The notes: generated by a model not told the origin, from the sequence alone. A DNA stretch of 64,000 nt from a virus (IMGVR_UViG_3300044635_000318:7901-71900); one strand, 5' to 3'. Counted from the first letter of the stretch, positions 248 to 62,441 are shown. Program-made: numbers and translations.

Positions 248-634
248 ATGGAATTGATAAGCACTAATACAGAGTTTAAACAATACTTAGAAAGTATTAA
301 ACTATGCTTATCTACTAAAGATATTACCCTGTATGCTAAGATTACAGGGGGAGTAGATTGTTCTACGCTAGAGAATTTAAAAGCAGAATTAGCACTCTAT
401 GTACTCAGGAATGCTGGGTTAGAGTGTTTAGAAGATACAATCCCCGATGGGGATTTGTCGTATCTAGAAAGATTTAAGCAGTATTTAGATCAATACTGTT
501 TAGATTGCACCCCATTAACTGTAACCAAATTAACAGTTCAAGAAGGACAAGGTCGTCCTGCAGCCGCATTATTATTAGAAAATGGGGAAGATATTGGGAC
601 AGAGAATGATGGCATCATAATTCAAGAATCATAA
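248..634 (+). CDS. hypothetical virion-module protein
   Basis: 128 aa ORF; stop overlaps the next start (TAATG). Confidence 0.7.
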   Translation: MELISTNTEFKQYLESIKLCLSTKDITLYAKITGGVDCSTLENLKAELALYVLRNAGLECLEDTIPDGDLSYLERFKQYLDQYCLDCTPLTVTKLTVQEGQGRPAAALLLENGEDIGTENDGIIIQES

Positions 635-1638
635 TGGCAACTAAAATATCAGCATTAACAACTATTGCTAAGAACAGTGTAGGAACACATCATTTGTTAA
701 CTGCAGCAACTAGTCAGAACTATAAACTCTTAGCATCTGATCTATTCCCATCTCTAACGGTTAGTGGAACTACAGGTCAAGAGTTATTGAGTTTAGCTAA
801 TCAGAATGTATTTACTCAGAAGAAAATCAATTCAGCTAGTAACTTATTGAGCATTGCTACAGTAAGTAATGAATTGGTGTTTACAGTTAATGCTGCTAAT
901 ATCGATCTTAGCCTGTGTAACAACGCTACTTCATTGTTTCTTACAACAGTCAATTTAGCATCTAATGTTACTGGGACTCTCCCTGCAACCAATGGGGGTA
1001 CAGGATTAAGTAGCTTTGCAGTTAAATCAGTATTCATCTCTCACCCAAGTACTGCAAATACTATGCAGGCTGTTTCATTAGCATCTAATGGACAGTTATT
1101 GATTGGGGGAACATCTGGACCTTTAGCAGCTACATTAACTGCTGGGACTAATGTTACGATTACAAATGCAGCTAACGCTATTACAATCGCTGCTCCTACC
1201 CCAGCTAATGTTGTGGTTAAAGAGAACAGTACTAATGATATTGTAGCTACAGGTGCTAATGTAAGAGCTGATAAAAATGTTGTATTTGAAAATACAACTT
1301 ACGGGATTACATACACTACAAAAGCTTCTGTAACTCAAAGTACTAGCTTATCAACTGCAGTAACTATTAACGCTACTGCTGGAAAGATTGTAACATTCCC
1401 AGCTTCATTGAGTACATCTCAAGCAGAATTTGTAGTCAATAACAATACTGTCACAACAAACTCATTAATCTTCTTGACACTAGTAAGCCCAGGGATAGCT
1501 ACAGAAGCTGATAACGCTAATATTATAGCAACTGTATCTGGAGTAAATACTGGAAGCTTTAAAATTGTTCTGAGCAACCCATTCGGGCATACATCAGATG
1601 CTGCAGGAAGAACAGTACAATTCTTAGTAATCAACTAA
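634..1638 (+). CDS. putative tail/head fibre-like structural protein
   Basis: Thr/Ser/Ala/Asn-rich; fibre-type motifs VTGTLPATNGGTG, NGQLLIG, LTAGTNVTIT. Confidence 0.65.
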   Translation: MATKISALTTIAKNSVGTHHLLTAATSQNYKLLASDLFPSLTVSGTTGQELLSLANQNVFTQKKINSASNLLSIATVSNELVFTVNAANIDLSLCNNATSLFLTTVNLASNVTGTLPATNGGTGLSSFAVKSVFISHPSTANTMQAVSLASNGQLLIGGTSGPLAATLTAGTNVTITNAANAITIAAPTPANVVVKENSTNDIVATGANVRADKNVVFENTTYGITYTTKASVTQSTSLSTAVTINATAGKIVTFPASLSTSQAEFVVNNNTVTTNSLIFLTLVSPGIATEADNANIIATVSGVNTGSFKIVLSNPFGHTSDAAGRTVQFLVIN

Positions 1639-1647
1639 TCAAACCAA

Positions 1648-2073
1648 ATGTCAAAGTTAAAAGCGTTTCAATTAACCAACCGGGAGTTTGTAGAAATCTA
1701 CAAAGGACTTACAGCAGTTAAGGATATTAAGAATTCAAGATTTGCTGTAGTTGTAGCTCGTAACATCAAAGAGCTAACGACTAAACTTGCTTATATTGAA
1801 TCAATGGCTATTCCATCAGATGAGTTTAGGACATTGTCTTATCAAGCTTCTAAGTTCATTGAGGAGAATAACTCTGAAGAATTAGAGCGATTGGAGCAAG
1901 AAAATGAAGCGTTAATCAATGATCGTAAACAACAGTTAATTGATATTGAGGAAGAGCTAGATGCAGAAGCAACTATCTATCTAGAGGAAATCAGAGAGGA
2001 CCAACTCCCTGAAGACCTTAGTCCAGATCAAATCTTCCCATTACTTAAAATCATTAAGAATGACTCTGAATGA
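1648..2073 (+). CDS. hypothetical acidic helical protein (possible fibre chaperone)
   Basis: 141 aa ORF directly after the fibre gene; overlaps the next gene. Confidence 0.6.
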   Translation: MSKLKAFQLTNREFVEIYKGLTAVKDIKNSRFAVVVARNIKELTTKLAYIESMAIPSDEFRTLSYQASKFIEENNSEELERLEQENEALINDRKQQLIDIEEELDAEATIYLEEIREDQLPEDLSPDQIFPLLKIIKNDSE

Positions 2074-3178
2074 AATCAAAGAGTTTTTAAGGAGTAAGAA
2101 TAGTTATTTGAAATGTAGTCCAGAAGTAATCGCAAATCGTCTGAATTGTAGTAACAATGATGCAAGAGTAGCGCTTACAGAAATAAAAAATGAACTCAAA
2201 AACGTCAATACGAATAGTAATGACAGTGAGTTCGAAGTGTTCATTGACAGAACGGGAATTAAACCAGAAGAGATTCGATCAGTCAAATTCTGGCAAACTC
2301 AAAAGGGGGATGCAAGATTCTCAGTTGTTACAGCAAATAAGAGTAACAACATAGAAGATCTAAAGCTAGAGATAGAATCATTCGCATCTCAGTACTCCCC
2401 AGTAGTTGTAAGGAGAAATTACCCAAAGTATAATTACTCTGAAGTGGCGTTAGAGATATCGCTCCCAGATGTACACTATGGGAAGATGAATGATGAGTCT
2501 AATGCAGAACTAGAAGACTTGTACATAGCTACAATCTCAAGTTTAGTATCTAAAGCATCTCATCTTCCTATAACTAAGATTCTACTCCCAATAGGGAATG
2601 ACGGATTAAACTCTGAGGGATTACGTCAAACAACTACAAAGGGTACTCCTCAACAAGACAATATGACTTGGATGGAGAGCTTTAGAGGGTACTGGGGATT
2701 ACTTGTAAAGACAATCAATTATCTGCAAACAATCGCTCCTGTAGATGTTATTGTAGTCAGTGGGAATCACGATTACGAAAGAATGTTCTACATCGGAGAT
2801 GTGTTAGCTGGATGGTATAGGAACAATGAGAATGTTAGTGTAGATAATTCAATGCACCCAAGAAAGTATTGGGAATATGGGAATGCAATGCTAATGTTCA
2901 CTCATGGGGATAAAGAAAAAGCTTCTGATCTCCCATTAATAATGGCTACTGAACAACCTGAAATGTTTGCAAAGAGTCTATTTAGAGAAGCTCATTGTGG
3001 GCATTTACACAAAGAAATGGTCAATGAATACAGGGGAATTAAAGTCAGGTTCATACCTTCTATATGTGCTAGTGATGACTGGCACAAGCAAATGGGCTAT
3101 GAGTCTAAGAGATCAGGGCAAGCATTTGTATGGACTATCGATAAAGGACTCGAAGGATACTTTCAAGTTAATATCTAA
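2060..3178 (+). CDS. calcineurin-like metallophosphoesterase
   Basis: Full motif set: PDVHYG, GNDG, GNHD, THGD, GHLH. Confidence 0.85.
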   Translation: MTLNEIKEFLRSKNSYLKCSPEVIANRLNCSNNDARVALTEIKNELKNVNTNSNDSEFEVFIDRTGIKPEEIRSVKFWQTQKGDARFSVVTANKSNNIEDLKLEIESFASQYSPVVVRRNYPKYNYSEVALEISLPDVHYGKMNDESNAELEDLYIATISSLVSKASHLPITKILLPIGNDGLNSEGLRQTTTKGTPQQDNMTWMESFRGYWGLLVKTINYLQTIAPVDVIVVSGNHDYERMFYIGDVLAGWYRNNENVSVDNSMHPRKYWEYGNAMLMFTHGDKEKASDLPLIMATEQPEMFAKSLFREAHCGHLHKEMVNEYRGIKVRFIPSICASDDWHKQMGYESKRSGQAFVWTIDKGLEGYFQVNI

Positions 3179-3194
3179 ACAAGAGAAAGAAGAT

Positions 3195-3503
3195 ATGGAA
3201 GATGATGCAGATGATCTTATGGATGATGGAATGTTTGACTTAGTATTTGGGGGACATGATTCTGACTTAGACATTTTAGATGATGCATATTATAACATCT
3301 ATCTAATTGCTACGAAGAAGAAAACATTAGAAGAATTACTCATTGAATCAGTATCAGATGGAATGATACTGTTTCTCCCCTATGACCCATCAGACCCTGA
3401 AACATTAAACATGGTGATTCCCGATGCTATTAAATATTTTGAAGATACAGAAGAATACGAATACTGTGCTGAATTAACTAAGGCTTTAAATACAGATACA
3501 TAA
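3195..3503 (+). CDS. acidic hypothetical protein with C-terminal UVR-like helical hairpin
   Basis: Likely start ATG 3195 rather than 2967; ends AIKYFEDTEEYEYCAEL. Confidence 0.6.
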   Translation: MEDDADDLMDDGMFDLVFGGHDSDLDILDDAYYNIYLIATKKKTLEELLIESVSDGMILFLPYDPSDPETLNMVIPDAIKYFEDTEEYEYCAELTKALNTDT

Positions 3504-3508
3504 CTACA

Positions 3509-4207
3509 ATGACTTTAGATGAGATTGCTTACAACCTATTAAATCTTTTCAGAGGAGGTAGATCTAATCAAGACGAAGGAATATCATTAGACCAGATTAA
3601 GTTTAATGTTAAGCACTATCGTGCAATGTTTATTAGACGAGATTTTGCTCGTAACGGATTAGTTACTAGACACTTAGAGCAAGATCTTGGGTGTATTAAT
3701 CTCATTAAAGTAGACGCATCTAAGTGCTGCGATCTCCCAATCAATTGCCCTATCTACAGAACAGATCGTAAGATCCCTAAAACTGTAAGATTCAACTTCT
3801 CAGAAGCTATTACATATACTGGGGATGTAACAGGATTAGGGAGAATCCCAATGGTTGAACCCTATGAGGTTCAATTTTTAATGTACGATAAGTTTACTTC
3901 TCATAAACCTAAGACTTATATGATTGAAGATTACTTGTATGTCTATAATCCTACAGGTATGTCTTTAATCAATGTTAGAGGGATATTCGAAGATCCTGAA
4001 AAAGTACAAGAGTTTAATACTTGCAATGGGGAATGCTATAATGATAAGATGGATTTCCCTCTCCCAGCTGATATGTTAAGTGCTATTAATAGTGGATTGA
4101 TTAATGGGGAATTAAAACTATTAGCATTAACTTTGCAAGATTCAACAAATAATAGAATGCAGGATACCTTTAATGGGGAGATTCCTAGCACTAATTCTGC
4201 AGAATAA
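3509..4207 (+). CDS. crAss-like tail ring / tail tubular protein
   Basis: N-terminus MTLDEIAYNLLNLFRGG..DE.IS; C-terminal VRGIFEDP and DFPLP resemble crAss-like ring proteins; context fits. Confidence 0.65.
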   Translation: MTLDEIAYNLLNLFRGGRSNQDEGISLDQIKFNVKHYRAMFIRRDFARNGLVTRHLEQDLGCINLIKVDASKCCDLPINCPIYRTDRKIPKTVRFNFSEAITYTGDVTGLGRIPMVEPYEVQFLMYDKFTSHKPKTYMIEDYLYVYNPTGMSLINVRGIFEDPEKVQEFNTCNGECYNDKMDFPLPADMLSAINSGLINGELKLLALTLQDSTNNRMQDTFNGEIPSTNSAE

Positions 4208-4224
4208 TATTAAAATTAATTACT

Positions 4225-4506
4225 ATGGGTTATAATACAAACGAAGAGAGATTACTCAATTCATCAAAATTAGTACTTGAAGAAAGTCTTGGGAAGTGTG
4301 GGGGACAACTTGTTACTAATAGTACTCCTATTACTGGGAAGTTCATTGCTATTACTCCATTAAGTGTATCTAACAGTTTTACTACACAAGGTAATTTAAC
4401 TCTATCTTCTGGTACAACTTTAGGAGCTGGATTAACTGTATATGGTTATTTTACTAGTGTAACAGTTGTTACTGGGAGCGCAATCGTATACAAAGCTTGT
4501 GAGTGA
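4225..4506 (+). CDS. small beta-rich structural protein
   Basis: 93 aa; GKFIAI...GLTVYGYFTSVTV pattern. Confidence 0.6.
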   Translation: MGYNTNEERLLNSSKLVLEESLGKCGGQLVTNSTPITGKFIAITPLSVSNSFTTQGNLTLSSGTTLGAGLTVYGYFTSVTVVTGSAIVYKACE

Positions 4507-4775
4507 TGGCTACCCCAGCATGGCAAAGAAAGGAGGGTAAGAATCCGAAAGGTGGACTAAATGCCAAAGGAAGAGCATCTTATAAAGCTGCTAATCCTGG
4601 GAGTACACTTGCTGCTCCTCAACCAAAAGGAGGATCAAGACGAGACTCTTTTTGTAATCGTATGTGTGGAATGAAGTCTAAGCAAACCAGCTCAAAGACA
4701 GCTAGTGACCCTAACTCAAGAATCAACAAATCACTTCGTGTATGGAATTGCGGATCCTGCAGCAACTGGAATTAA
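4503..4775 (+). CDS. DUF6321-like small basic protein
   Basis: PAWQRKEGKNPKGGLNAKGRASY...RRDSFC.RM.GMK...DPNSRINKSLR.W.C signature. Confidence 0.75.
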   Translation: MMATPAWQRKEGKNPKGGLNAKGRASYKAANPGSTLAAPQPKGGSRRDSFCNRMCGMKSKQTSSKTASDPNSRINKSLRVWNCGSCSNWN

Positions 4776-4778
4776 ACA

Positions 4779-4949
4779 ATGACACTCAAAGAACACATCA
4801 TAGGTAACTCTGCTACAGTGCTTGGACTTGTAATGTCGATGGCGCAAGTCAATCAGATATTAACAGCGGTATCTCTATTAGTTGCAATTGTAGTTAACGT
4901 ACAATTGTTCAGACATAGGGTAAATAATAAATCTAACAAAGACTTTTAA
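4779..4949 (+). CDS. small membrane protein, holin-like (absent from the ORF track)
   Basis: 56 aa MTLKEHIIGNSATVLGLVMSMAQVNQILTAVSLLVAIVVNVQLFRHRVNNKSNKDF; hydrophobic segments plus basic tail; fills the intergenic gap. Confidence 0.55.
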   Translation: MTLKEHIIGNSATVLGLVMSMAQVNQILTAVSLLVAIVVNVQLFRHRVNNKSNKDF

Positions 4950-4953
4950 TACA

Positions 4954-6393
4954 ATGAAATCTAAAAAAGCTAACCTCAAAAAAGAGGTTAAAGGCCCGAT
5001 GAAAATGAAAAAGGGCAGATATTTAGAACCGGAGAAAGAATTAATGTTTGGGGGTCCTAAAAAATATCAAAGTGGATCAAGACCGGGAATGGGGCCTACA
5101 GCAGGTAGACAGGCTAGTTATGGATCAAGAAACCCACAAGTGGAGGCAGAAAATAAAGAGTTATACTCATATTTGACAGCGCTTGAGAAAATGTCAAATA
5201 TGACCCATAATGAAAAAACAAAACTTGCTCAACAACGACAAGCCGCAGCCAATAAAGGCAAGCAAGAATCGCCTGTACCGACTGCGCCTAAAAATAATCT
5301 GCCCAAAGCGTCAGCAGCCCCTGCTCCTAAATCACAAACTGGATCTGCTGATTATCCTAGAGGCGGAATTGGAACCTCCAGCAACGCCTACTACAACGCA
5401 GAAGCTAAAGCGGCAATAGCAAGAACAGAGGCAGCAAAAGCGTCTAAACAATCATCGGTCACTCCGACTTTTAACCAAGCATTTGCCGCAGCTAGAAAAG
5501 AAGGTAAAACTACATTTACTTTTGAAGGAAAATCTTATGGAACACGAAGAGCAGATGAAAATCAGGAACAGTACAAAGCTGCTATGGCTCGTGCTGCAGG
5601 TTCCGCTACACCAGCTCCCGCAGCTAAACCTTCGGAGGCAAAAGCTTCAGAACAAGCACCACAAAGAGCTACAACTTTATTAAGAAATACTACTCCAAGC
5701 CTTATTCCAGCTTCTAAATCAAGACCTTCAATTTCTACGTCTCGTCAAACATCTCCTGGAAAAGTCACTCCACGTGAGTTTGCTAATCCAAATTTAAAAA
5801 CCTCCAAAGTTGAAAGCTCAAGCATGGAAGGGGCTAACAAAGCTCGTAAAAGCGATATGAAGAAATCTAAGCTGATGAGAGGTGGTTACTTAGAACCAGA
5901 CAAAGAATTAATGTTCGGAGGCAAATCTAAGTATCAAGCAGGTGGAATGACTAATATGCCTATGAAGCCTAAAAAGAAAATGGAGATGCCAGCATCTATG
6001 CAAACCCCACCTAAAAAGAAGAAGCCTATGGGTTTGATGGATAAGCTGGAGAATGCTATGGGTAAATCCAAGTACAAATCTGGGGGATTCCCTGATTTAA
6101 CTGGGGATGGAAAAGTAACTAGAGCAGATATCCTCAAAGGCCGTGGAGTTATCAAAGAAGCTGGGGGTATGATGGAAGAGTGCGGTCCAGGAAGACCTTG
6201 CCATAATGCTAAAAAAGCTGCTAAGACTGCACGTAAACAAGAACGTAATCGTAGAAACCCTAATGCTTCTAGAAGAAGAGCTGCAAATGCAGGAAATGGT
6301 GGAGGTGGAGCAGGAATTGGGGGCGCTATGAAAACTATAGCTGGATTGGGTGCATTAGGTTTTATGGCTAAAAAGGCTAAGGATAGTATGTAA
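4954..6393 (+). CDS. basic low-complexity modular virion (internal/cargo) protein
   Basis: K/A/G/M-rich; modules TFNQAFAAARKEGKTTFTFEGKSYGT and FPDLTGDGKVTRADILKGRG; repeated xxGG motifs. Confidence 0.7.
   Translation: MKSKKANLKKEVKGPMKMKKGRYLEPEKELMFGGPKKYQSGSRPGMGPTAGRQASYGSRNPQVEAENKELYSYLTALEKMSNMTHNEKTKLAQQRQAAANKGKQESPVPTAPKNNLPKASAAPAPKSQTGSADYPRGGIGTSSNAYYNAEAKAAIARTEAAKASKQSSVTPTFNQAFAAARKEGKTTFTFEGKSYGTRRADENQEQYKAAMARAAGSATPAPAAKPSEAKASEQAPQRATTLLRNTTPSLIPASKSRPSISTSRQTSPGKVTPREFANPNLKTSKVESSSMEGANKARKSDMKKSKLMRGGYLEPDKELMFGGKSKYQAGGMTNMPMKPKKKMEMPASMQTPPKKKKPMGLMDKLENAMGKSKYKSGGFPDLTGDGKVTRADILKGRGVIKEAGGMMEECGPGRPCHNAKKAAKTARKQERNRRNPNASRRRAANAGNGGGGAGIGGAMKTIAGLGALGFMAKKAKDSM
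5020..5937 (+). repeat. imperfect ~50 bp direct repeat (5020-5070 and 5887-5937) encoding YLEP[ED]KELMFGGxxKYQ
   Basis: tatttagaaccggagaaagaattaatgtttgggggt vs tacttagaaccagacaaagaattaatgttcggaggc. Confidence 0.85.
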
Positions 6394-6875
6394 TGCACTC
6401 TCTTAAAGAGATATATAAAAGTTATTGCGTAGATTCAGACTCACCTCTGAGTAAAGAAGTCTTCAAATCATTGTGTGAAGAATTTAACATGATGGTTGTA
6501 GACTTCATCTTGGAAGGGGGAGTTCTGAATCTGCGTAATAATTTAGGGTATATGTCTATTCGTAGGATAGAACGAAATCCTAGTGCCCCTACAATAGATT
6601 GGTGGGAGAGTAATAAGTACAAACAAGAGTTGTTAAAGGAAGGTAAAAAGCTGTATGATGCTGAGACGGGGGAAGGAGAAAAGTGGTTTATCTATTACAC
6701 TGATAAGTGGTATTGCAAGTTTCACTGGGAGAAATCAAAGTGTAAAATCCCAAACAAAACAGCGTATAGGTTTACCCCATCTAGAGGATTAAAAGGGAAT
6801 AAAGAGAAGTTAATCAGTCTGTTAAAGAGTGATGATTTAGCATATCTAAGGTTTAAAAGTCATGGCAATATATAA
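6393..6875 (+). CDS. crAss-like IHF/HU-related protein
   Basis: EFNMMVVDFILEGGVLNL.NNLGYMSI...IDWWES...YRFTPSR pattern; sits next to a ring protein as in crAss-like phages. Confidence 0.65.
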   Translation: MHSLKEIYKSYCVDSDSPLSKEVFKSLCEEFNMMVVDFILEGGVLNLRNNLGYMSIRRIERNPSAPTIDWWESNKYKQELLKEGKKLYDAETGEGEKWFIYYTDKWYCKFHWEKSKCKIPNKTAYRFTPSRGLKGNKEKLISLLKSDDLAYLRFKSHGNI

Positions 6876-8274
6876 GACTACATCTAGTAAAGTAATTATT
6901 AGGAAGATATTTAGAGACTTAAACCCTAGTGGAGATAACTGGGTAGATGATGCTATTGAGTGGATTGGGGAAGCTTTAGAACATATTGGATCTGCAGCAC
7001 AGCTTGAAAAAAAGACTTGTGTTATTTCGATTAAAAACTTCAAAGGTTCTCTCCCAGCTAACTTATCTTATATCAATCAAGTAGCAGTTAATTCTGCATC
7101 ATCCCCAGCTATTAGTAGTGAATTAGATGTACTTCTTAGTCAGATAGATGATCTTAATTATCTCATGGCTAATGATCCTACAATTAACTTAACTAGTCAG
7201 ATTAGAGACTTTAATGTTCGTGCAGCTATTCTTGAGAATATCTACATGACATCAGCTCAAGGATTGCTCCCATTATCATACTGTACTACTAATTTCCCAG
7301 AAGCAGCTGATTGCCCTACTTGCTCTCAAGAGTTTATTGTAGGGAATGAATGTTATTACGTAGAGAATGGGAGAATCAAAACATCATTTGCTAATGGACT
7401 AGTGTGTTTAAGCTACATGTCATTCCCAGTAGATGATGATGGTTATCCATTAGTCCCAGATGATATCAGCTTCAAAGAAGCTATGTTCTGGTATGTATAC
7501 AAGAAATTACTCTTAGGGAATACAAACGTATCAGCTATCAATATTGATTACACATTTGCTGAAACTCAGTGGAAATACTACTGCACTCAAGCTAGAAATG
7601 CAGCTAACTACCCAGATATTGATCGGTATGAATCCTTCTTGGATCAGTGGGTTAGACTTATCCCAAATATCAACAGACATGCTGAACTGTTTGGGACACT
7701 CAATGTACGTGAGAATCTGTATCGGGGTAAACACAATAGAACCAATATTGAATCTCTCCCATCACAGAGTACACTTGCATCAGGAAGTTCAACAACTACA
7801 GGTTATAATTCAGTGCAAAAAGTATCAGTCGCATCTTGGGTAACTAGTACAACAGCTACAGTTAATATTACAGCAGGTTCAGGGTATCAAACTCTAAGCC
7901 TCCCACAAGCAAGCGAAGTAAATTACATTAATGGGGCTGTTCAAATCACAAATCAACAAACATATTGGAGCATTATAGGACTATTAGCTGGGAAAACGAT
8001 TCAATATTCATTCGTTATCGAGTCAAATGCTAACGGAGCTACAACCGATAATGACATCAGTGTACAGGCAATATTAGTTGATACGAGTAACAATACTCAG
8101 TATGTTATCTCTAACTACGATTACAACACATCTAGTGGGGCTACAACATTCTCAGGTATTATTACTCACATCAATACGACTATTACCAATGCTCAACTGC
8201 ATCTGAAGATTAAATCTGATACAGTTCTATTAAACTCAACTAGATTACTCTCAGGACAAGTTAGAATTCAATAA
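6862..8274 (+). CDS. crAss-like tail ring/tubular protein with C-terminal beta-rich extension
   Basis: DAIEWIGEAL..IG, PVDDDGYPLVPD and WKYYCTQAR motifs; ~170 aa S/T-rich tail. Confidence 0.7.
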   Translation: MAIYKTTSSKVIIRKIFRDLNPSGDNWVDDAIEWIGEALEHIGSAAQLEKKTCVISIKNFKGSLPANLSYINQVAVNSASSPAISSELDVLLSQIDDLNYLMANDPTINLTSQIRDFNVRAAILENIYMTSAQGLLPLSYCTTNFPEAADCPTCSQEFIVGNECYYVENGRIKTSFANGLVCLSYMSFPVDDDGYPLVPDDISFKEAMFWYVYKKLLLGNTNVSAINIDYTFAETQWKYYCTQARNAANYPDIDRYESFLDQWVRLIPNINRHAELFGTLNVRENLYRGKHNRTNIESLPSQSTLASGSSTTTGYNSVQKVSVASWVTSTTATVNITAGSGYQTLSLPQASEVNYINGAVQITNQQTYWSIIGLLAGKTIQYSFVIESNANGATTDNDISVQAILVDTSNNTQYVISNYDYNTSSGATTFSGIITHINTTITNAQLHLKIKSDTVLLNSTRLLSGQVRIQ

Positions 8275-50571: not shown

Positions 50572-50582
50572 TGATTAATTAA

Positions 50583-50897: not shown

Positions 50898-50905
50898 TTT
50901 GATTG

Positions 50906-53525: not shown

Positions 53526-53542
53526 TGAGTTAACTATTAAGA

Positions 53543-54942: not shown

Positions 54943-55129
54943 AATGTTCGTAAATTTTCTCTAGTAATCTTTCAATAGTCCCTGTACTCAATAAATCGTA
55001 CAGGTCTGCTCCTTTGTGATAAACTCCCTCAATTACTGGGTAAGCCAGTTCATCCCCAGTAGTGTGTTCAAAGTAATACTCTACAGTGAACGTGATCTCA
55101 GAAAGATCGATATCCAGTATAAGTGTCAT
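54908..55129 (-). CDS. hypothetical acidic protein
   Basis: 73 aa ORF within the operon. Confidence 0.5.
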   Translation of the reverse strand: MTLILDIDLSEITFTVEYYFEHTTGDELAYPVIEGVYHKGADLYDLLSTGTIERLLEKIYEHYADLEYDYDGE

Positions 55130-55795: not shown

Positions 55796-56460
55796 GTGTT
55801 AGGTTTTAAAGATTCTAATGCTTTTGCAATCACAGGGAGCTCAGCGTAAAACAATTTCTTGACTTCTTTAGCTAATTCTTGCATCTCTAATTGAGCATGC
55901 CCATCAGTACGAATATCAATGAAATGAATCCAGCTTCTTACACTCCCAGTCATTCTAATTACAGTCTTAGTAGCCATAGGGAGAATCATTCTAGCTGTTT
56001 CTCTAGCTACTCCTCCTTCTAATAAAGTGTTGTACAGGTCTTTGGTTTGATTAAGATGAATCTCCACCAATTCATACAAGTACGCTTCTTTAGAACTAAT
56101 CTCTTCATCAGAGGACTGACGATTGTTTTTAGCTTGTTTACGTAATTGAATATCCTCAAAGATTGATTCCCCAAGAATATTCACATCTTGATACCTCTGA
56201 CTAAACTCTTGGAATGTAAAACTTCTGTGCCTCAGAAGTTGAATCCCAATAGCTTTACTTGTCTCAATGTCAAAGGTCATAAATGAATGCTCAAATGGGG
56301 ACCAATGCCTATTCTTAATCAAATAAGTAATCAGCTTTTCAAAGTCCTCTGATTTGTTTTTACGAGAAGAGGATACTCGTGCAATGTGAGCAATGTTTAG
56401 CTCAGCATTTGGGGTGCTTGATATTAATGAAACTTGCATTTTTGTTTGATTTATAAGCAA
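55792..56460 (-). CDS. thyX: FAD-dependent thymidylate synthase
   Basis: ARVS, HWSPFE, RHRSFTFQEFSQRY, ETARMILP, HAQLE; true start may be MQVS (56439). Confidence 0.95.
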   Translation of the reverse strand: MLINQTKMQVSLISSTPNAELNIAHIARVSSSRKNKSEDFEKLITYLIKNRHWSPFEHSFMTFDIETSKAIGIQLLRHRSFTFQEFSQRYQDVNILGESIFEDIQLRKQAKNNRQSSDEEISSKEAYLYELVEIHLNQTKDLYNTLLEGGVARETARMILPMATKTVIRMTGSVRSWIHFIDIRTDGHAQLEMQELAKEVKKLFYAELPVIAKALESLKPNT

Positions 56461-56467
56461 AATTTTG

Positions 56468-56558
56468 TAGGGATGGTGGGAGTCGAACCCACGGTGTGAT
56501 CATTAATCAGTACCAGATTTTAAGTCTAGCGCGTTTCAACCAGCTTCGCCACATCCCC
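56468..56558 (-). tRNA. tRNA-Leu(TAA)
   Basis: GGGGATGTGGCGAAGCTGG...CTAGA-CTTAAAA-TCTGG, long variable arm, GGTTCGACTCC...CATCCCTA. Confidence 0.9.
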
Positions 56559-56562
56559 ATAC

Positions 56563-56596
56563 GGCAAAGATACTATAAAAATTTACTATCTTTGCC
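56563..56596. promoter_or_regulatory. inverted repeat forming divergent Bacteroidota -7 promoter elements
   Basis: ggcaaagata (56563-56572) and tatctttgcc (56587-56596); each reads TAtcTTTG on its own strand. Confidence 0.7.
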
Positions 56597-56611
56597 ATAA
56601 ATAAAATTCTA

Positions 56612-57043
56612 ATGAAGAGAAAATACAGAAACTACAATGATTTAGATATAATTAAAGCTTGTAAAGAATCTACATCTTACGCTCAGGTTCTTAATAAACT
56701 TGATTTAAGATCTGCAGGAGGCAATTACAAAAATTTACAAATAAATATTAAACGGCTAAGCATTGACATATCTCATTTTAAACACCAAGCGGCGAATCAA
56801 GATAAAGAATTTAAATCTTTTGAAACTTTAATTAAACCTGCATCTATTAAAAGTCGATTAATTAAATATAGATCTGCAACTTGTGAAATATGTAAATTAA
56901 ATGTTTGGATGGGTAAAGATATAGCTTTAGAATTGCATCACATTGATGGGAATAATCGAAACAATGATCAAAATAATTTACTATTGATCTGTCCAAATTG
57001 TCACGCTCAAACTGATACCTACAGAAATAAAACTAGAAATTAA
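56612..57043 (+). CDS. HNH homing endonuclease (free-standing, opposite strand to its neighbours)
   Basis: CEIC...LELHHIDGNNRNN...NL.LICPNCHAQT. Confidence 0.92.
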   Translation: MKRKYRNYNDLDIIKACKESTSYAQVLNKLDLRSAGGNYKNLQINIKRLSIDISHFKHQAANQDKEFKSFETLIKPASIKSRLIKYRSATCEICKLNVWMGKDIALELHHIDGNNRNNDQNNLLLICPNCHAQTDTYRNKTRN

Positions 57044-57058
57044 TTTCACCATCCGAGC
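57042..57058 (-). pseudogene. 5' remnant of a tRNA-Leu-like gene
   Basis: minus strand GCTCGGATGGTGAAATT, ending at the HNH stop codon. Confidence 0.55.
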
Positions 57059-57068
57059 AATTGAGGGA

Positions 57069-57365
57069 TTACTCCCCCAAAGGTATAAAGCCTTTATTGA
57101 ATAACTCTTCTAAAGATGTATCCAATATCTCATGTGTAGCTCTAGCAATAGAGATGTAAGTTTCCTCTTTCTCTTTATCATCTACAAACTTGTAGTGATT
57201 CTTTAATCCGTGTTCTAATACTTTCGTTGTAGAATTAACTGACTTTTTAATTTCATGTCTATAATACGGAGTAGACTTAAGTTCATCAAGCAACTCTAAA
57301 GATGCTTGTAAGCAGATAACTAACTTAATGAAGTTGTACTGCGCTTGGTGTAGATTATCATCCAT
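57069..57365 (-). CDS. hypothetical protein
   Basis: 98 aa ORF. Confidence 0.6.
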   Translation of the reverse strand: MDDNLHQAQYNFIKLVICLQASLELLDELKSTPYYRHEIKKSVNSTTKVLEHGLKNHYKFVDDKEKEETYISIARATHEILDTSLEELFNKGFIPLGE

Positions 57366-57379
57366 TGTTTGAAAATTAG

Positions 57380-57453
57380 TGATCCCGATAGGATTCGAAC
57401 CTATGACCTAATCATTAGAAGTGATTTGCTCTATCCAACTGAGCTACGGGACC
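57380..57453 (-). tRNA. tRNA-Arg(TCT)
   Basis: GGTCCCGTAGCTCAGTTGGATAGAGC, AATCA-CTTCTAA-TGATT, GGTTCGAATCC. Confidence 0.93.
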
Positions 57454-57463
57454 AAAGAGGGTA

Positions 57464-57742
57464 TTAAACCCTCAATAAATCTCTTTGTTCCTTAAGATAC
57501 CTTTGCCATTCATTGAATGACATTCTCTCAGGTTCAACTGAGCTCTTTACGCAAGTGTAAATAACAAACACTTCATACCTCTGCAGTTTACGATTATAGA
57601 TAACTCTAGAATTAGAATTACTCTTTCGTAAACAAACTTTGATTTCCTGTGCTGTTATTGGACTTTTCGTATGAGTCAGTAAGACTTCTTTAAACGTTTC
57701 AGTCATTCTCATGGAGTAGAATCGTTGAACCCCCTTCCCCAC
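57464..57742 (-). CDS. hypothetical protein (true start probably downstream, near MRMTE)
   Basis: ORF between tRNA-Arg and the membrane protein gene. Confidence 0.5.
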   Translation of the reverse strand: MGKGVQRFYSMRMTETFKEVLLTHTKSPITAQEIKVCLRKSNSNSRVIYNRKLQRYEVFVIYTCVKSSVEPERMSFNEWQRYLKEQRDLLRV

Positions 57743-57920
57743 ATGCTACAATGTACTCCTTCCCATCATACGGGTAAATAAACACAATGGGCTCAACTTC
57801 TTTAGCTTCTTGACGAGCTAATCCTACTAGAACAAGACACAATCCAACAAAACTAATAACTGAGATCGCTGTAAACAGCATTGCATACCCACGTAGGGTA
57901 ATTCTTGGGAATTTAACCAT
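57699..57920 (-). CDS. small membrane-anchored protein
   Basis: TM segment YAMLFTAISVISFVGLCLVLVGL. Confidence 0.6.
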   Translation of the reverse strand: MVKFPRITLRGYAMLFTAISVISFVGLCLVLVGLARQEAKEVEPIVFIYPYDGKEYIVACGEGGSTILLHEND

Positions 57921-57984
57921 TTGGTTTGAAAATTAAGATTAATCCACTAAACAAATCACAAATCCAAGTATTGCTACTGCAATA

Positions 57985-58089
57985 CTAAGTACTTCCATTA
58001 TTTCCATTATCATCATTTAGCATGAATGAAGCTAGGACAATGAAGAATACACATATTATTGTCCCAAAATAAACTGTTACGAAATTCAT
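57985..58089 (-). CDS. micro membrane peptide (34 aa)
   Basis: MNFVTVYFGTIICVFFIVLASFMLNDDNGNNGST with AT-rich leader. Confidence 0.4.
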   Translation of the reverse strand: MNFVTVYFGTIICVFFIVLASFMLNDDNGNNGST

Positions 58090-58106
58090 TGTATTAAATT
58101 AAATTG

Positions 58107-58179
58107 CGCGACGGGTAGGACTCGAACCTACAACCTTTGGTTTTGGAGACCAACGCTCTACCAATTGAGCTACCGAAGC
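58107..58179 (-). tRNA. tRNA-Trp(CCA), acceptor stem with two mismatches
   Basis: GCTTCGGTAGCTCAATTGGTAGAGC, TTGGT-CTCCAAA-ACCAA, GGTTCGAGTCC. Confidence 0.85.
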
Positions 58180-58182
58180 AAA

Positions 58183-58262
58183 TGAGGGTAAGCATTTGCA
58201 ACTACCTACCCCCGTAATGACTCACCCTGGGACGCTGTTCTTATGGGTAGCGTGATGAGTAC
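58183..58262 (-). ncRNA. candidate structured ncRNA (pseudoknot plus hairpin) between tRNA-Thr and tRNA-Trp
   Basis: ACTC/GAGT, ACGCT/AGCGT, crossing ACCC/GGGT, then GGGGGTAGGTA/TGCTTACCCTC hairpin. Confidence 0.5.
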
Positions 58263-58268
58263 TGTTTG

Positions 58269-58341
58269 AGCTCCCGAAAGGAATCGAACCTTCAACCTGC
58301 TGATTACAAATCAGCTGCTCTACCAATTGAGCTACAGGAGC
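58269..58341 (-). tRNA. tRNA-Thr(TGT)
   Basis: GCTCCTGTAGCTCAATTGGTAGAGC, GCTGA-TTTGTAA-TCAGC, GGTTCGATTCC. Confidence 0.93.
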
Positions 58342-58356
58342 ATCCGACAAAGATAA

Positions 58357-58698
58357 CTATTGTGGATCATACAATTCGTTATCTTCATCTAATCTCATCA
58401 TATCCTTTAATACTTCTTCTCTTTCTTCAAAGCTTGGTTGATACAAATCAATTAACCAATCTTCTTTAGGGAAACCGGGCAAGTCAAGATTATTTTCAGG
58501 ATGATCTTTGAATCTTTGATAGTCTTTAATTACTACATCGTCAATCATAAGATTCCACTCAGGGTATAGCTTTTTGTAAGTCTTTATTGCATCTCGAACT
58601 ACATACGGAGCATAAGTGTGTCTACCATTGGCATACCTGATTGCCATCCAAATCGTGTTTTCAAAACACTTCTTGAGTTGAAATTCTGTTTCAGTCAT
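58357..58698 (-). CDS. hypothetical protein
   Basis: 113 aa; WMAIRYANGRHTYAP motif. Confidence 0.65.
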   Translation of the reverse strand: MTETEFQLKKCFENTIWMAIRYANGRHTYAPYVVRDAIKTYKKLYPEWNLMIDDVVIKDYQRFKDHPENNLDLPGFPKEDWLIDLYQPSFEEREEVLKDMMRLDEDNELYDPQ

Positions 58699-58718
58699 TA
58701 GTTTTTAATTAGTTAGTT

Positions 58719-59267
58719 TCACATAGGGGCGTTGGTGTCACTCTGTGGGGGTTTTAAGCAACGGACGGAGAAGCCGTATCGTAGGTAGTCGTAGTACCGA
58801 CCGACATCGTCATAGTCGGAGTAGAAGTAGCGGTACCAAGCGAGGCTGGTACCATTGGCTGAAGAAGACCACCAACCGCCGTAGTCGCCTACACTGTAGA
58901 AGGCGCCATTGTAGTTGTTTCGGTCGCCACCGGGCAACGCGGAAAACCCGCTGCTGTTGGTACCCTTCCACACACTGGTTTTCATCTTCTCACCCGCGAC
59001 CTCCTCTCCTCCTAAAAAATCAATGAGTTCCGTCCACTCCGCATCTGTAGGCACATGGAAACCTTCAGGAGCAAGCCCGCGCGGGTCGTTCACGGCGTAC
59101 CAATTATACAGATAGTGTCCGTTGGGTGAGATGCAATAGGCAGCTGTTTCAAGTTTAGCCCATTCTTCTTTATCTGTCACCAATGGGATGTCCTCACCGT
59201 TCCGGAACTTGGTAACCTTGAGGTCTTCACTTGCCCATTCTTGCAAGCCAATTTTTACTATTTTCAT
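58719..59267 (-). CDS. Fib_succ_major (FISUMP, C-lectin-fold) domain protein
   Basis: IGLQEW..DL, LYNWYAV, LAPEGFHVPTDAEW, NSSGFSALPGG.R, WWSS, GFSVRCLK. Confidence 0.9.
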   Translation of the reverse strand: MKIVKIGLQEWASEDLKVTKFRNGEDIPLVTDKEEWAKLETAAYCISPNGHYLYNWYAVNDPRGLAPEGFHVPTDAEWTELIDFLGGEEVAGEKMKTSVWKGTNSSGFSALPGGDRNNYNGAFYSVGDYGGWWSSSANGTSLAWYRYFYSDYDDVGRYYDYLRYGFSVRCLKPPQSDTNAPM

Positions 59268-59441
59268 TTGGTTTTTGTGTTAAAGGTTTTGACCATTTTG
59301 TTGACGTCAACGAAATGATTCATACATCCGCACTGCGGGGTGTCGTACCAGTCCGGGCGAGGCCACGACTAATAAGCGCAATCATTGGCAGTATTAACCA
59401 ACCTTTATCTTTTTTCATTTCTCGTTGGTGTTAAAGGTTTT
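59264..59441 (-). repeat. direct repeat AAAACCTTTAACAC..AAATGA at gene junctions (59264-59290 and 59415-59441)
   Basis: aaaacctttaacacaaaaaccaaatga vs aaaacctttaacaccaacgagaaatga. Confidence 0.7.
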
Positions 59442-59613
59442 CAACCTCTTGTTTTACTTCAGTCCAATAGTCAATCTGACCTTGAGTGTTGAGCAAAGCA
59501 ATTTTCTTAGCAATCGTACTGCATAAAACTTCATTCCCGCAATCTGTGTCTTCATCCATTAAAGTCATTTTGACTTGGAGAACCAACATCTCTGCTTTTG
59601 TTTTTGGGGTCAT
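59431..59613 (-). CDS. hypothetical protein
   Basis: 60 aa MTPKTKAEML...YWTEVKQEVENL. Confidence 0.65.
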   Translation of the reverse strand: MTPKTKAEMLVLQVKMTLMDEDTDCGNEVLCSTIAKKIALLNTQGQIDYWTEVKQEVENL

Positions 59614-59773
59614 TGTTTAACTTGATTTATTGATTTAACTTGTAAACTCTTGGGTTGACTCTGTGTCACAGAGTGGGGGCAATTTTCCCTGTTTCGTGTC
59701 ACAAAGTCGGGGTTAATACGCTTTTGCATATAGTTTAGTTTGTTTGAACTGAATTATATCTTTAAGCATATTG

Positions 59774-59809
59774 TAGTCAAGGCAAGATTTGAATTCCCCC
59801 ACTTGACTA
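59774..59809 (-). pseudogene. collapsed tRNA-like element (acceptor stem plus partial T arm only)
   Basis: minus strand TAGTCAAGTGGGGGAATTCAAATCTTGCCTTGACTA; related to the two neighbouring elements. Confidence 0.55.
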
Positions 59810-59900
59810 TTTTTCTTTTAAATGTCTAACAACAGCGATTACACCTAACACACAAATACTTCCGTAAAATAAAATCCAAAACATAACTTTTGTTATTTAG

Positions 59901-59970
59901 TAGTCACGACAGGATTCGAACCTGCATCTCCCGTACAATTACGGGGCGTTACCAATTACGCCACATGACT
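59901..59970 (-). ncRNA. tRNA-like element with non-canonical anticodon arm
   Basis: AGTCATG TG GCGT AATTGGTA ACGC CCCGTA ATTG TACGGG AGAT GCAGG TTCGAAT CCTGT CGTGACT A. Confidence 0.75.
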
Positions 59971-60045
59971 GGAGGGAGTTGAACCCTCGTAAAACAAAGC
60001 GTAACATAAAACTGACAACCACTCAGTTTTTAGTTTTAAGCATCG

Positions 60046-60131
60046 TAGTCAGGACAGGAATCGAACCTGTAAAGGACTTACATTTGCCTTAGCGTTGTTT
60101 CCGCTTGCGTCTACCATTCCGCCACCTGACT
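60046..60131 (-). ncRNA. tRNA-like element with non-canonical anticodon arm and long variable arm
   Basis: AGTCAGG TG GCGGAATGGTAGACGC A AGCG GAAACAA CGCT AAGG..CCTT TACAGG TTCGATT CCTGT CCTGACT A. Confidence 0.75.
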
Positions 60132-60202
60132 AATTAGAAATTGAATGAAAAACCCATCATTAAGTATTCTTTTTAGACTTAATGAATGATATTTCCTTCA
60201 TG

Positions 60203-60276
60203 TGCGCCCTGTAGGACTTGAACCTACGACCTACGGATTATGAGTCCGCTGCTCTAACCGACTGAGCTAAGAGCGC
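60203..60276 (-). tRNA. tRNA with CAT anticodon, probably Ile2 (lysidine) rather than Met
   Basis: GCGCTCTTAGCTCAGTCGGTTAGAGC, GCGGA-CTCATAA-TCCGT; resembles ileX-type tRNAs. Confidence 0.85.
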
Positions 60277-60289
60277 ATCAGTAATTAAA

Positions 60290-60526
60290 TTACTTAACTA
60301 TGTACGTAGGACTAATAGGTTCGTTTGGGTATTCAAGCTCCATCAGTAGTTTAAGATAATGAATGGCTTTTTGAATATCCTCTTTCCCATTCTTCTCCTT
60401 GTGTCTACAGATGTACTTAATTGCACATCCCTCCATATAAGGGATATCATTAACGTGAATAAACTCAACAGGTTGAATCTTAAACTGTTTGTAATGATTA
60501 CCCCCAACTTGCTTATTTAATTCCAT
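60290..60526 (-). CDS. DUF3310 (T7 gp1.7-like nucleotide kinase family) protein
   Basis: QVGGNHYK...IQPVEFI...G.AIKYICR...KNGKEDIQKAIHYL. Confidence 0.85.
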   Translation of the reverse strand: MELNKQVGGNHYKQFKIQPVEFIHVNDIPYMEGCAIKYICRHKEKNGKEDIQKAIHYLKLLMELEYPNEPISPTYIVK

Positions 60527-60545
60527 TTGATTTGATTAAATTAGA

Positions 60546-62441
60546 TTATTTACTCCAAGTCTCTGAAATGAATGTTTCAGCTTTTAAGAGTTTATTCTTG
60601 ATAATCACATTAGCTGCTTTCTCCATCAACTCTGTTAAAGTCTTCTCCCATTCTTTAGAGAGTTCTCTACGACAAATAGTATCTATCTGATCATGAACAG
60701 TCATCACAATTTTTATACTATCGTGAAGATTGTTAGAGTCAATATAGTCATAAATGTAATAGAGCCCTAATTTAAGCATATCTGCGCTAGAACCTTGAAT
60801 ACTTGTGTTTTTTGATGCACGTTCTATAACCCCTAATTCTTTTGGGGGTGTGTAGTCCTTATCCCATTCAGGGAAGAACCTTTTACGCTTAAACGGGGGA
60901 AGAGTAGTAATAAACCCATTCTGTTTCCCAAACTTTCCTCTTTGATCTAAGAACTTTTTGATTGATGGGAATGCATTAAAGAACTTATCAATAAGATCTT
61001 GTGCTTCAGTTAAACTAATATCTAACTGATCACTTAACTTGTGAGGTCCCATCCCATAAGATAATCCAAAATTTACGGACTTAGCTTTATTCCTATAAAT
61101 CTTATGTTGTGGGCAATCACACTTAGATTTATTCAGATTGTACATGCAATTGTACTCACTGACTTCCCCCCAATCACTAAAGATCAATTCAGCACATACA
61201 GAATGTAAATCCTCATTGTTCTGAAGAGCTTGAATGAATATAGGGTCATTACTCCAGTAAGCTAAGACATTCAACTCTTGACTAGAGTAATCAGAGCTTA
61301 CAAACACATACTCAGGAGATGGGGGAATAAAGCAATTACGATAAAGATTATTGCTAGGGATTTGTTGCATATTGGGGTTAGATGAACTAATCCTCCCAGT
61401 GTTTAGGATTTGATTAAAATCTGTATGAACTCTTTTGTTCTTCTTAAAATGTTCATAGAAGCTATCCCCATAAGTTGAAGCGAGTTTTGATACCTCTTTG
61501 TAACTAAGATACTTCCCAACTAACTCATTATTCTTGAACTTGTACAGCTTCTTCCCATTAACATCTTCTAAGTTTGGGAATAACACTTTGAACAGTTGAA
61601 GCATCTGAGATGGGGAATCCCAATTGATATTCGTCTTTCTCGATACTGGGTTAAACAGATCTTGTTGAACTGGGATATGATACTTACTCTTAAGCTTAGG
61701 GTGATTGATAACTAGCTCATCTAACTGTAATTTGATTTCTTGTTGTTTCTCCTTATTCGTATGTGATAGTTGACTCCAAGCTTTTTGATCAATATCTAAC
61801 CCTTGATACTCAATCTCAGCAAATATCTTAGTTACTTTATTCTCTAGTTTAACTACTTCTTCTAAATCTTTCAGTTTGATCTCTTGTTCTTGCTTTTGCT
61901 TGATCTCAATCAAATACTCAACATCTTTAGCCCCGTAAACTATTTGATTCTTAGTGAATGGGAGTGAAGATGTTTGTTGATTAAACGATGCCCTAGCTTG
62001 TTTACTTAAATCAATATCTAGATATCGTTTAACACACTTGCTTAACGAGTACCCATGCAATTCATCCCCACAGTGTAATATCTTCTCAACCAAGTACGTA
62101 TCGTAGATATTGTTTGTTTGAATATTGTAGTTCTTAAGAAACTTATAGTCAAACTTAGCGTTATGAAATATCTTAACGATAGACTTATCCTCAAAGATAT
62201 CTTTCAGCTTATCAATCTTTGTATCCCTAACATCAATAACAAATTGAGTGTCTTTATCCCCAATCTGTAACATCAACATTTTAAGAGATGTGAAGTCTAA
62301 CCCTTCAGTCTCAGTATCAACTGCAATCTCTTTCTTGTTTTTGAGATATTCAACTACCTCCTCAATTGTTGTCTCTTCGATGTCATTGAACATCGAGATT
62401 TGATTCCCTACGAATTTTAGCATCTTTTTGTAGTATTTCAA
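60546..62441 (-). CDS. polA: family A DNA polymerase with 3'-5' exonuclease
   Basis: DTET, HNAKFD, YGAKD exonuclease motifs; TGRISSSNPNMQQIP, DYSSQE, KSVNFGLSYG, IQGSSAD, VHDQI. Confidence 0.95.
   Translation of the reverse strand: MKYYKKMLKFVGNQISMFNDIEETTIEEVVEYLKNKKEIAVDTETEGLDFTSLKMLMLQIGDKDTQFVIDVRDTKIDKLKDIFEDKSIVKIFHNAKFDYKFLKNYNIQTNNIYDTYLVEKILHCGDELHGYSLSKCVKRYLDIDLSKQARASFNQQTSSLPFTKNQIVYGAKDVEYLIEIKQKQEQEIKLKDLEEVVKLENKVTKIFAEIEYQGLDIDQKAWSQLSHTNKEKQQEIKLQLDELVINHPKLKSKYHIPVQQDLFNPVSRKTNINWDSPSQMLQLFKVLFPNLEDVNGKKLYKFKNNELVGKYLSYKEVSKLASTYGDSFYEHFKKNKRVHTDFNQILNTGRISSSNPNMQQIPSNNLYRNCFIPPSPEYVFVSSDYSSQELNVLAYWSNDPIFIQALQNNEDLHSVCAELIFSDWGEVSEYNCMYNLNKSKCDCPQHKIYRNKAKSVNFGLSYGMGPHKLSDQLDISLTEAQDLIDKFFNAFPSIKKFLDQRGKFGKQNGFITTLPPFKRKRFFPEWDKDYTPPKELGVIERASKNTSIQGSSADMLKLGLYYIYDYIDSNNLHDSIKIVMTVHDQIDTICRRELSKEWEKTLTELMEKAANVIIKNKLLKAETFISETWSK

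Follow-up and report, generated by a model that had tools for sequence, protein, structure and literature searches.

The window analysed here, a 64,000-base stretch corresponding to bases 7901-71900 of the 71.9-kb virus record IMGVR_UViG_3300044635_000318 (hereafter G000), carries along its whole length (1..64000) a strand-symmetric excess of GGG and CCC that arises at one position: the base directly 3' of (T)GG which, read on the other strand, is the base directly 5' of CC(A). Our analysis confirms that this excess is real, highly significant, strong and unusual. An earlier note on this DNA had described it as a genome-wide bias between positions 248 and 62441 of an AT-rich crAss-like phage, and the trait does extend beyond that interval to span the whole contig. 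The effect operates at the DNA level, is symmetric between strands and tied to a single position, varies in strength among lineages, and is present in phage DNA and absent from candidate host contigs. We regard it as probably the footprint of a neighbour-dependent bias in mutation or error correction acting on double-stranded phage DNA.

Size, position and strand symmetry of the excess

The bias is readily seen in the glycine codons of the plus-strand gene at 13901..18757, which encodes a 1618-aa protein with a PHROG virion structural protein match. The earlier count for its first 22 glycine codons (13 GGG, 8 GGA, 1 GGC and 0 GGT) is exact, and the gene in full contains 50 GGG, 45 GGA, 10 GGT and 3 GGC, that is, 46% GGG among 108 glycine codons, with C preceding 63% of its 67 proline codons. 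Across the window, GGG makes up 393 of 1011 glycine codons (39%) in 21 plus-strand genes and 195 of 362 (54%) in 32 minus-strand genes, whereas codons ending in G reach only 4-10% for Pro, Ala, Thr and Val, the remaining families of four codons. CCC remains at 6-8% of proline codons (31/502 in plus-strand and 16/210 in minus-strand genes). The use of C-ending codons before proline, also reported in the earlier note, is borne out: the preceding base is C for 44% of 500 proline codons in plus-strand genes and 53% of 210 in minus-strand genes (3.85 and 3.52 times the baseline, respectively).

In 200 within-gene synonymous permutations of the coding strand, with protein sequence and gene codon usage held fixed, CCC was found 498 times against 209.6 expected (z 24.7), CCCA 223 times against 78.8 (z 19.7), CCCCA 81 times against 12.1 (z 21.4) and TGGG 468 times against 345.1 (z 10.8). 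A maximal-order Markov test pooling both strands yielded 1658 occurrences of CCC/GGG against 958.8 expected (z 28.3; 2.07 times the mononucleotide expectation), a z of 12.8 for CCCA/TGGG and 6.18 times the mononucleotide expectation for CCCCA/TGGGG, while no 6- to 8-mer rose above z 4.5, so that no outlier is longer than five bases. The enrichment thus survives control for amino-acid sequence and codon usage, and both strands show it. As had been claimed, TGGG and CCCA are abundant in both gene blocks, with similar strength of both forms in each: in log-odds terms, GG[G] and [C]CC, where brackets mark the focal base, are enriched by 2.19 and 2.91 in the plus-strand block (56..41804) and by 2.48 and 2.95 in the minus-strand block (41852..63946). 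In either block, the form whose G run lies on the template strand exceeds the other by 0.5-0.7 log-odds, a difference confounded with selection on glycine codons.

To locate the effect, we examined the four-fold degenerate sites of the window (n = 8014). G occupies 43% of such sites after GG, against 4-8% in most other codon boxes and 15% in CTN, and C occupies 56% of those before CC, against 2-9% elsewhere. By block, the probabilities of G after GG and of C before CC are 0.37 and 0.51 on the plus strand and 0.54 and 0.63 on the minus strand. The opposite ends of the runs are at about baseline, with 7% for CC[C] and 14% for [G]GG. Complementary substitutions shift together, with log2 enrichments of +1.7/+2.8 for GG[G]/[C]CC, -1.0/-2.1 for GG[C]/[G]CC, -1.4/-1.9 for GG[T]/[A]CC and approximately zero for GG[A]/[T]CC.

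The flanking context is mirrored as well. The probability of GGG is 0.61 after T and 0.30, 0.37 and 0.21 after A, C and G, respectively; on the mirror flank, C precedes CCA in 66% of cases and CCT in 33%, and the purine that follows GGG mirrors the pyrimidine that precedes CCC. The core context can therefore be written T-GG[G]-R, equivalent to Y-[C]CC-A. A positional profile, covering the G form in full and the upstream half of the C form, places the influential positions at T one and two places 5' of GG and at 1-2 bases 3' of the focal site, for a core of (T)T-GG[G]-R. A comparison of 16 contexts in the related record G004 returned closely matching strand pairs: TGG[G]A.61 and T[C]CCA.57, TGG[G]G.51 and C[C]CCA.54, TGG[G]C.38 and G[C]CCA.40, AGG[G]G.11 and C[C]CCT.11, and two further mirrored contexts at.22/.17 and.10/.08. 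In G000 itself the strand-mirror correlation is r = 0.90 over 9 usable contexts.

A selected word should be completed from any of its free positions, so that baseline frequencies at the other positions argue against selection for or against the word. We assessed these positions in three pooled genomes in which the trait is high. The third base of Thr, Ala and Ser codons is C in 43.5% when CC of a proline codon follows (n = 570), against 5.9% in xC[N]CA before His or Gln (n = 748), where the baseline is 6.0-7.8%. Proline codons followed by A (CC[N]A) are CCC in 8.5% of cases (n = 978) against 8.1% otherwise, and Val and Leu codons before glycine (xT[N]GG) end in G in 7.9% (n = 444), again at baseline. 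By reading frame, CCCA exceeds expectation only as xxC CCA (604 against 174.5), with 76 against 73 and 50 against 64 in the other two frames. The flanking bases are likewise unenriched: T before glycine codons, as a free synonymous site, stands at.515 against a baseline of.473, and CCA accounts for.408 of proline codons, as in other boxes. Arithmetic on the observed frequencies indicates that selection for TGGG would lift this T to about 0.6 and that avoidance of TGGH would drop it below 0.1. The pattern is thus conditional: given TGG, the next base becomes G, as neighbour-dependent mutation or correction behaves.

The frequency of G after T and a G run falls as that run gets longer, from.53 for runs of two (n = 2010) to.39 for three,.18 for four and.03 for five or more, these being equilibrium frequencies and not rates. 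We infer that this fall reflects counter-selection of long homopolymers, behind which the underlying rate could be rising. The 5' T still acts across a run of three G (.39 against.22 and.10). Computed from equilibrium frequencies, the odds shift towards G is about 16-fold against T, 13-fold against C and 6-fold against A, and A/G differences between related pairs are raised 2.6-fold per A site. Before CC, the bases replaced are mainly purines, with A falling from.39 to.12 and G from.047 to.009, while T changes from.50 to.44.

DNA-level origin, distribution among relatives and substitution turnover

The bias is also present where the choice of glycine or proline codons plays no part. In the intergenic DNA of three trait-high genomes (7.9 kb), the base after TGG is G in 35.5% of 155 instances, against 16.1% of 112 in three trait-low relatives and a mononucleotide G frequency of 17%. 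After the TGG codon of tryptophan, where the next base alters the protein, trait-high genomes show C in 6.6% against 14.9% and G in 37.4% against 32.4% of cases, a shift that is absent from the trait-low genomes.

Codon usage in the major capsid gene, the most highly expressed gene, which lies upstream of the window (bases 2921-4360 of the G000 contig; L001:2921-4360), runs the other way: 4% of its 46 glycine codons are GGG and 70% are GGT, against 43-81% GGG in replication and giant virion genes. C still precedes 32% of proline codons in this gene, and expression counters the glycine-codon side of the pattern more than the proline-context side. The (G/C)UC-Cnn and nCC-CCn codon pairs, which in the sections of Tats et al. 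2008 (PMC2585594) available to us are described as avoided in most of 138 organisms, are preferred in G000. Together, the use of GGT in the capsid gene and the preference for generally avoided codon pairs indicate that translational selection opposes the bias and is not its cause. As the earlier note had stated for the window, there is no tRNA-Gly among its 7 tRNA calls, and none was called in the whole 71.9-kb contig, in the 100%-complete relative G001 or in G004.

To investigate the distribution of the trait, we compared related freshwater phages, reference phages and bacterial contigs. Over 48 capsid-centred loci of at least 9 kb, which are related and hence not independent, the log-odds for GG[G] rise and fall together with those for [C]CC (r = 0.88), while CC[C], whose enrichment averages -0.03, shows r = -0.09. 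In the whole records G000, G001 and G004, GGG reaches 1.6-2.0 and TGGGG 4.3-5.8 times the mononucleotide expectation, against 0.66-0.88 and about 1.2 times in the trait-low relatives G002, G003 and G005. PolA-centred loci range, for GG[G]/[C]CC, from.05/.03 in L122 to.57/.79 in L152; the latter, an IMG/VR record covered over 11.2 kb, with a PolA 51% identical to that of G000, is the most extreme, with GG[G] in 57% of 136 and [C]CC in 79% of 42 cases. Trait strength follows the clades of the PolA tree, on which G000 and G001 lie on long unresolved branches, and trait-low genomes retain a weak form (.15 following T,.08 following A). The five reference phages, of which four are gut crAss-like and the fifth is Flavobacterium phage Fpv2, which has a related capsid, are at baseline, with 1-10% for GG[G] and 1-11% for [C]CC, and GGT as their main glycine codon (48-66%).

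A Bacteroidia metagenome-assembled genome (MAG; G006) contains a phage contig of 81.6 kb that is related to G000 and shows the trait moderately (.15/.22), whereas a 115-kb sample of bacterial contigs from the same MAG, the one with rpoB among them, gives baseline values (.07/.11). Neither host codon usage nor a host-wide mutational process is favoured by this contrast, the phage being linked to the MAG by binning only. Two 20-kb pieces of the MAG (contigs C3 and C6; L110 and L113) show C before CC at 0.19 and 0.15 against 0.07 and 0.06, with no rise in the other four pieces; they may represent additional binned DNA of mobile or viral origin. The proposal that the force acts on DNA rather than through translation is thus upheld by the mirrored contexts, by the co-variation of the two forms over 48 loci, by the intergenic and post-tryptophan signals and by the avoidance of GGG in the capsid gene.

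Gain and loss of the focal bases were estimated by comparing related loci in eight pairs, using four-fold sites whose neighbours are conserved, assuming equilibrium and with no correction for multiple hits. For GG_, the loss-rate ratio is 0.73 ± 0.09, where pure selection predicts 0.46 and pure mutation 1.0, and the gain ratio is 2.98 (predictions of 1.87 and 4.1, respectively). For _CC, the loss ratio is 0.79 ± 0.14 (0.32 and 1.0) and the gain ratio 5.5 (2.27 and 7.0). Five of the pairs are appreciably diverged, and in these GG_ and _CC focal sites differ more often than other four-fold sites. In pairwise differences at all sites, which are confounded by codon position, gains are about 1.8 times higher in trait-high than in trait-low pairs, with similar losses. 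Turnover therefore lies nearer to the mutation model, with raised gain, than to a model of reduced loss, and a minor fixation bias is possible.

Strain-level differences, with 591 differing places and totals per run by type of change, without context, for the contigs of runs X7, X10, X14 and X17 in 22000-41900 of the window, are mostly transitions. Among the 127 transversions of run X14, 87 are A:T<->C:G, 19 A:T<->T:A and 21 G:C<->C:G.

Interpretation and alternative explanations

On the interpretation we consider probable, N in the strand 5'-TGG-N would be converted to G far more often than elsewhere, with the complement N-CCA becoming C-CCA; T and C would be replaced most and A less. G runs would be extended at their 3' end only, best with T before the run and a purine after it. 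Selection against long homopolymers appears to halt the process, as G runs of six or longer hardly ever occur, and translational selection for GGT would counteract the bias in the most expressed genes. The bias might arise during synthesis by the replisome of the phage family-A polymerase, for example through slippage of a nascent G run followed by realignment, and would be neutral or mildly costly rather than useful. Of the three candidates advanced in the earlier note, a polymerase or mutational signature is the one that fits best; a sequence-specific modification or binding motif and escape from a host defence reading GG-containing motifs both fit poorly, given the behaviour of the free positions, the unenriched flanks and the near-normal loss.

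The nearest known parallel comes from bacteria. In the portions of the preprint by Cherry (2022, 10.1101/2022.10.28.514265) on which we draw, T->G mutation is described as strongly raised by preceding G runs in all bacteria examined, with a small effect of following G runs, none of preceding C runs on T->C, and weak effects on A->G and C->G; the hotspot has a leading-strand bias and no link to MutT, and slippage with realignment is put forward as a possible mechanism.

Several observations weigh against a mutational origin of this kind. The bacterial hotspot needs at least three G and grows with run length, whereas the phage effect needs two, with P(G) falling in longer runs as given above; the phage effect also requires a 5' T, which those portions of the preprint do not describe, and it replaces A too, not T alone. 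Turnover lies between the two pure models, and the GG_ loss ratio is 3 standard errors below pure mutation. Polarised counts give 17 gains and 21 losses at GG_ and 5 and 13 at _CC, low numbers that mis-polarisation could easily distort. Both trait-high and trait-low lineages occur among PolA relatives at 50-58% identity, no accessory replication-block gene tracks the trait, and the candidate host link that supports the baseline comparison is one of binning.

The phage family-A replicase is the obvious suspect as the source of the bias, although this is inferred. Homology searches for a dedicated enzyme were negative: PF01702 (TGT/DpdA), PF01555 (N6/N4), PF00145 (C5) and PF02086 (D12) have no match in any of the three genomes G000, G001 and G004, while control families were positive in 9-14 of 14 genomes, and a Pfam scan of 54 ORFs revealed no methylase, TGT/DpdA or glycosyltransferase family. 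The earlier statement that no modification enzyme could be recognised thus holds for the Pfam families searched, including in the complete relative G001. Among 29 PolA-centred records, no replication-block gene of G000 is confined to those with a high trait; the trait-low fragments G002, G003 and G005 end before the replication module and do not enter this comparison. Two known mutational routes were also set aside. The MutT/8-oxo-dGTP pathway does not match, as the available text of the same preprint (10.1101/2022.10.28.514265) reports no G-run preference in mutT strains, and the Pol IV signature differs in context, with 5'G and/or 3'C around the A:T site.

An unlikely alternative is that selection acts on words, with TGGG/CCCA (or GGG/CCC) favoured for a modification, a binding protein or a Chi-like signal, or with TGGH/DCCA avoided through a host defence. 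Such selection would account for a strong, strand-symmetric enrichment that differs by lineage, as host-specific pressures do, and word-level selection does act on G000: CATG is depleted (Markov observed/expected 0.43 for the window; against mononucleotide expectation, 0.42-0.58 in five out of six related records, G001, G002, G004 and G005 among them, with no avoidance in G003 at 1.01), as are GATC (0.56), AATT, TATA and GGC/GCC. The CATG and GATC depletion looks like ordinary restriction-site avoidance. Word selection is also in keeping with loss ratios below 1, and G000 is only 84% complete according to CheckV, with many ORFs assigned to no family. Against this, the other free positions all sit at baseline (5.9%, 8.5% and 7.9%), T before glycine is neither raised, as selection predicts, nor depleted, as avoidance predicts, and both loss ratios lie far above the.46 and.32 predicted. 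Moreover, TGT and methylase families are lacking even in the complete G001. A G-quadruplex role was likewise rejected, as G000 contains zero canonical motifs.

We give a slightly smaller chance to biased correction, a mutation bias with a dedicated enzyme in which a mismatch glycosylase or nickase, of phage or host, would read CCA/TGG and resolve an adjacent mismatch to G:C. This would explain the position specificity, with a fixed TGG/CCA part and a variable neighbour, the unchanged free flanks and the mutation-like turnover, and the phage does encode a uracil-DNA-glycosylase (UDG)-superfamily protein (41852..42520, minus strand) and an ORF with an HNH nuclease match. However, UDG homologues are also found in the trait-low relatives L134 and L136, and the C5 methylase family (PF00145) is unmatched in G000, G001 and G004. 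At [N]CC it is mainly purines that are lost, whereas T:G-specific correction would deplete T, and the action of the 5' T across three G is more in keeping with the edge of a run than with recognition of a fixed site.

Slimmer still is the chance that a dedicated enzyme docks on 5'-TGG/CCA-3' and rewrites or hypermodifies the neighbouring pair to G:C, as a programmed, lineage-tuned mutator or base-exchange system, belonging to a so far undescribed family and serving, for example, escape from defence.

A translational cause, in which GGG would be the preferred glycine codon through tRNA supply and C-ending codons would be favoured before proline for decoding, is very improbable. Its appeal lies in the fact that synonymous GG[N] and [N]CC can be read only at glycine and proline codons, where most of the signal sits. 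It is contradicted by the codon usage of the major capsid gene, by the lack of tRNA-Gly in G000, G001 and G004, by the same bias in intergenic DNA and after tryptophan, by mirrored flanks that have no translational rationale, by a preference for the very codon pairs that most organisms avoid, and by bacterial contigs of the MAG without such usage. Finally, GG-containing motifs trigger some platform-specific read errors, but an artefact of sequencing or assembly, for instance through errors made systematically after GG, can be dismissed, as the same sequence recurs in contigs of public runs from 17 studies, the trait is found in dozens of independently assembled relatives and follows their phylogeny in strength, and frames are intact across genes of up to 2555 aa.

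The source phage and comparison with known systems

Sequence comparison confirms G000 as a crAss-like phage, in agreement with the earlier assignment, on the basis of its capsid, tail ring proteins, giant virion proteins and two-block layout. Pfam matches include Crass_capsid (4.6e-75), CrAss_Ring_1 (3.1e-52) and Ring_2 (1.1e-34), with tail ring 3/4 also matched. The window has a G+C content of 36.8%, and a greedy ORF set spans 96% of it, with giant ORFs of 1455-2555 aa. The plus-strand block encodes structural, tail and giant virion proteins, and the minus-strand block replication and early genes. The latter include a family-A DNA polymerase (PolA) with a 3'-5' exonuclease domain (60546..62441, minus strand), in which 81% of 21 glycine codons are GGG, together with a DnaB-like helicase, a primase, an SF2 helicase, a 5'-3' exonuclease, ThyX, a MazG-like protein and rIIA/rIIB-like proteins.

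The phage is distant from named relatives. Its capsid is 28-31% identical to those of named gut Crassvirales, its PolA shares no more than 33% identity with any entry in the phage collection, and the protein encoded at 634-1638 of the window has no match in that collection. Used alone as a query, PolA retrieved no IMG/VR relative, whereas an alignment with the G001 PolA did. A related capsid protein occurs in 363 IMG/VR stretches, the best 80 of which are 84-100% identical. DNA of the window is present in contigs of public runs, labelled lake water, freshwater or lagoon metagenome, from 17 studies, 13 of the 17 containing at least half of the sampled words. These public contigs break at a short repeat (28316-28344), and one contig of run X14 skips 660 bases (28610-29271) within the gene for an 1810-aa protein, which points to a gene for a giant protein that either varies in length or was assembled with a gap caused by the repeat.

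A minus-strand tRNA cluster (56467..60276) comprises Leu-taa, Arg-tct, Trp-cca, Thr-tgt, one odd call, Val-aac and Met-cat. The odd call by ARAGORN (59900-59970) is a tRNA-like gene with the two-base anticodon 'tt', and the tRNA-Val(aac) (60045-60131) is 87 bases long; both may be mis-calls, intron-bearing or degenerate. Shine-Dalgarno-like words (GGAG, GAGG or AGGA) lie within 20 bases 5' of 5 of 61 ORF starts, against 7.2 in random 20-mers. An excess of AAGGAGG in a 7-mer scan is therefore not due to Shine-Dalgarno sites, as it is not located at gene starts, and the phage seems to lack such sites, as expected for a Bacteroidota host.

If the mutational interpretation is correct, a single neighbour-dependent process overrides the AT pressure of a phage with 37% GC, turning the rare GGG into the commonest or second commonest glycine codon and making preferred codon pairs of nCC-CCn and (G/C)UC-Cnn, which are usually avoided. 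Related phages, which extend from no effect to 57% for GG[G] and 79% for [C]CC, would then constitute a graded natural system for the cause of G-run-extension mutagenesis, a cause that may lie in the family-A replicase and could be tested in vitro. The same results call for caution with codon- or k-mer-based prediction of phage hosts and with inference of modification or defence escape from motif enrichment, both of which can be dominated by mutation context. Testing which free positions respond separates mutation context from motif selection.

We found no report of a GGG/CCC pattern in phages in the literature, and the preprint text available on the bacterial hotspot makes no mention of phage, codon usage, composition or equilibrium. 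As described there, the hotspot resembles the phage effect in that the base directly 3' of a G run changes to G, with the same directionality and with a strength that differs between organisms. In the bacterial hotspot T is the base most affected, with A and C less so; in the phage the equilibrium odds follow the order T > C > A, yet A/G differences are raised as well. The hotspot concerns rare sites, whereas the phage effect reshapes glycine codon usage and codon pairs genome-wide. In a further published case, from a different type of genome, the accessible text holds that neighbouring bases, not translational selection, set synonymous codon choice; the principle is the same as in the phage, although the text does not claim a single 6- to 10-fold effect at one trinucleotide.

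Two other systems shift word abundance on both strands. Very-short-patch repair in E. coli raises CCAGG-like words and lowers CTAG, and needs Dcm/Vsr and acts on T:G mismatches only. Like the phage bias, it is a fixed-context process that alters one position and shifts oligonucleotide abundance on both strands without selection of words. It differs in that the C5 methylase family is not found in G000, G001 or G004 (the Vsr family was not part of that search) and in that the phage loses purines, not T, before CC. Phage genomes also avoid restriction sites and defence motifs, a strand-symmetric and lineage-specific word bias that G000 itself shows for CATG, GATC and GGC/GCC. Such avoidance, however, lowers whole words from any free position, whereas GGG/CCC words are enriched, and through a single position. 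Set against these systems, the phage bias would represent a new, genome-shaping variant of known context-dependent mutagenesis.

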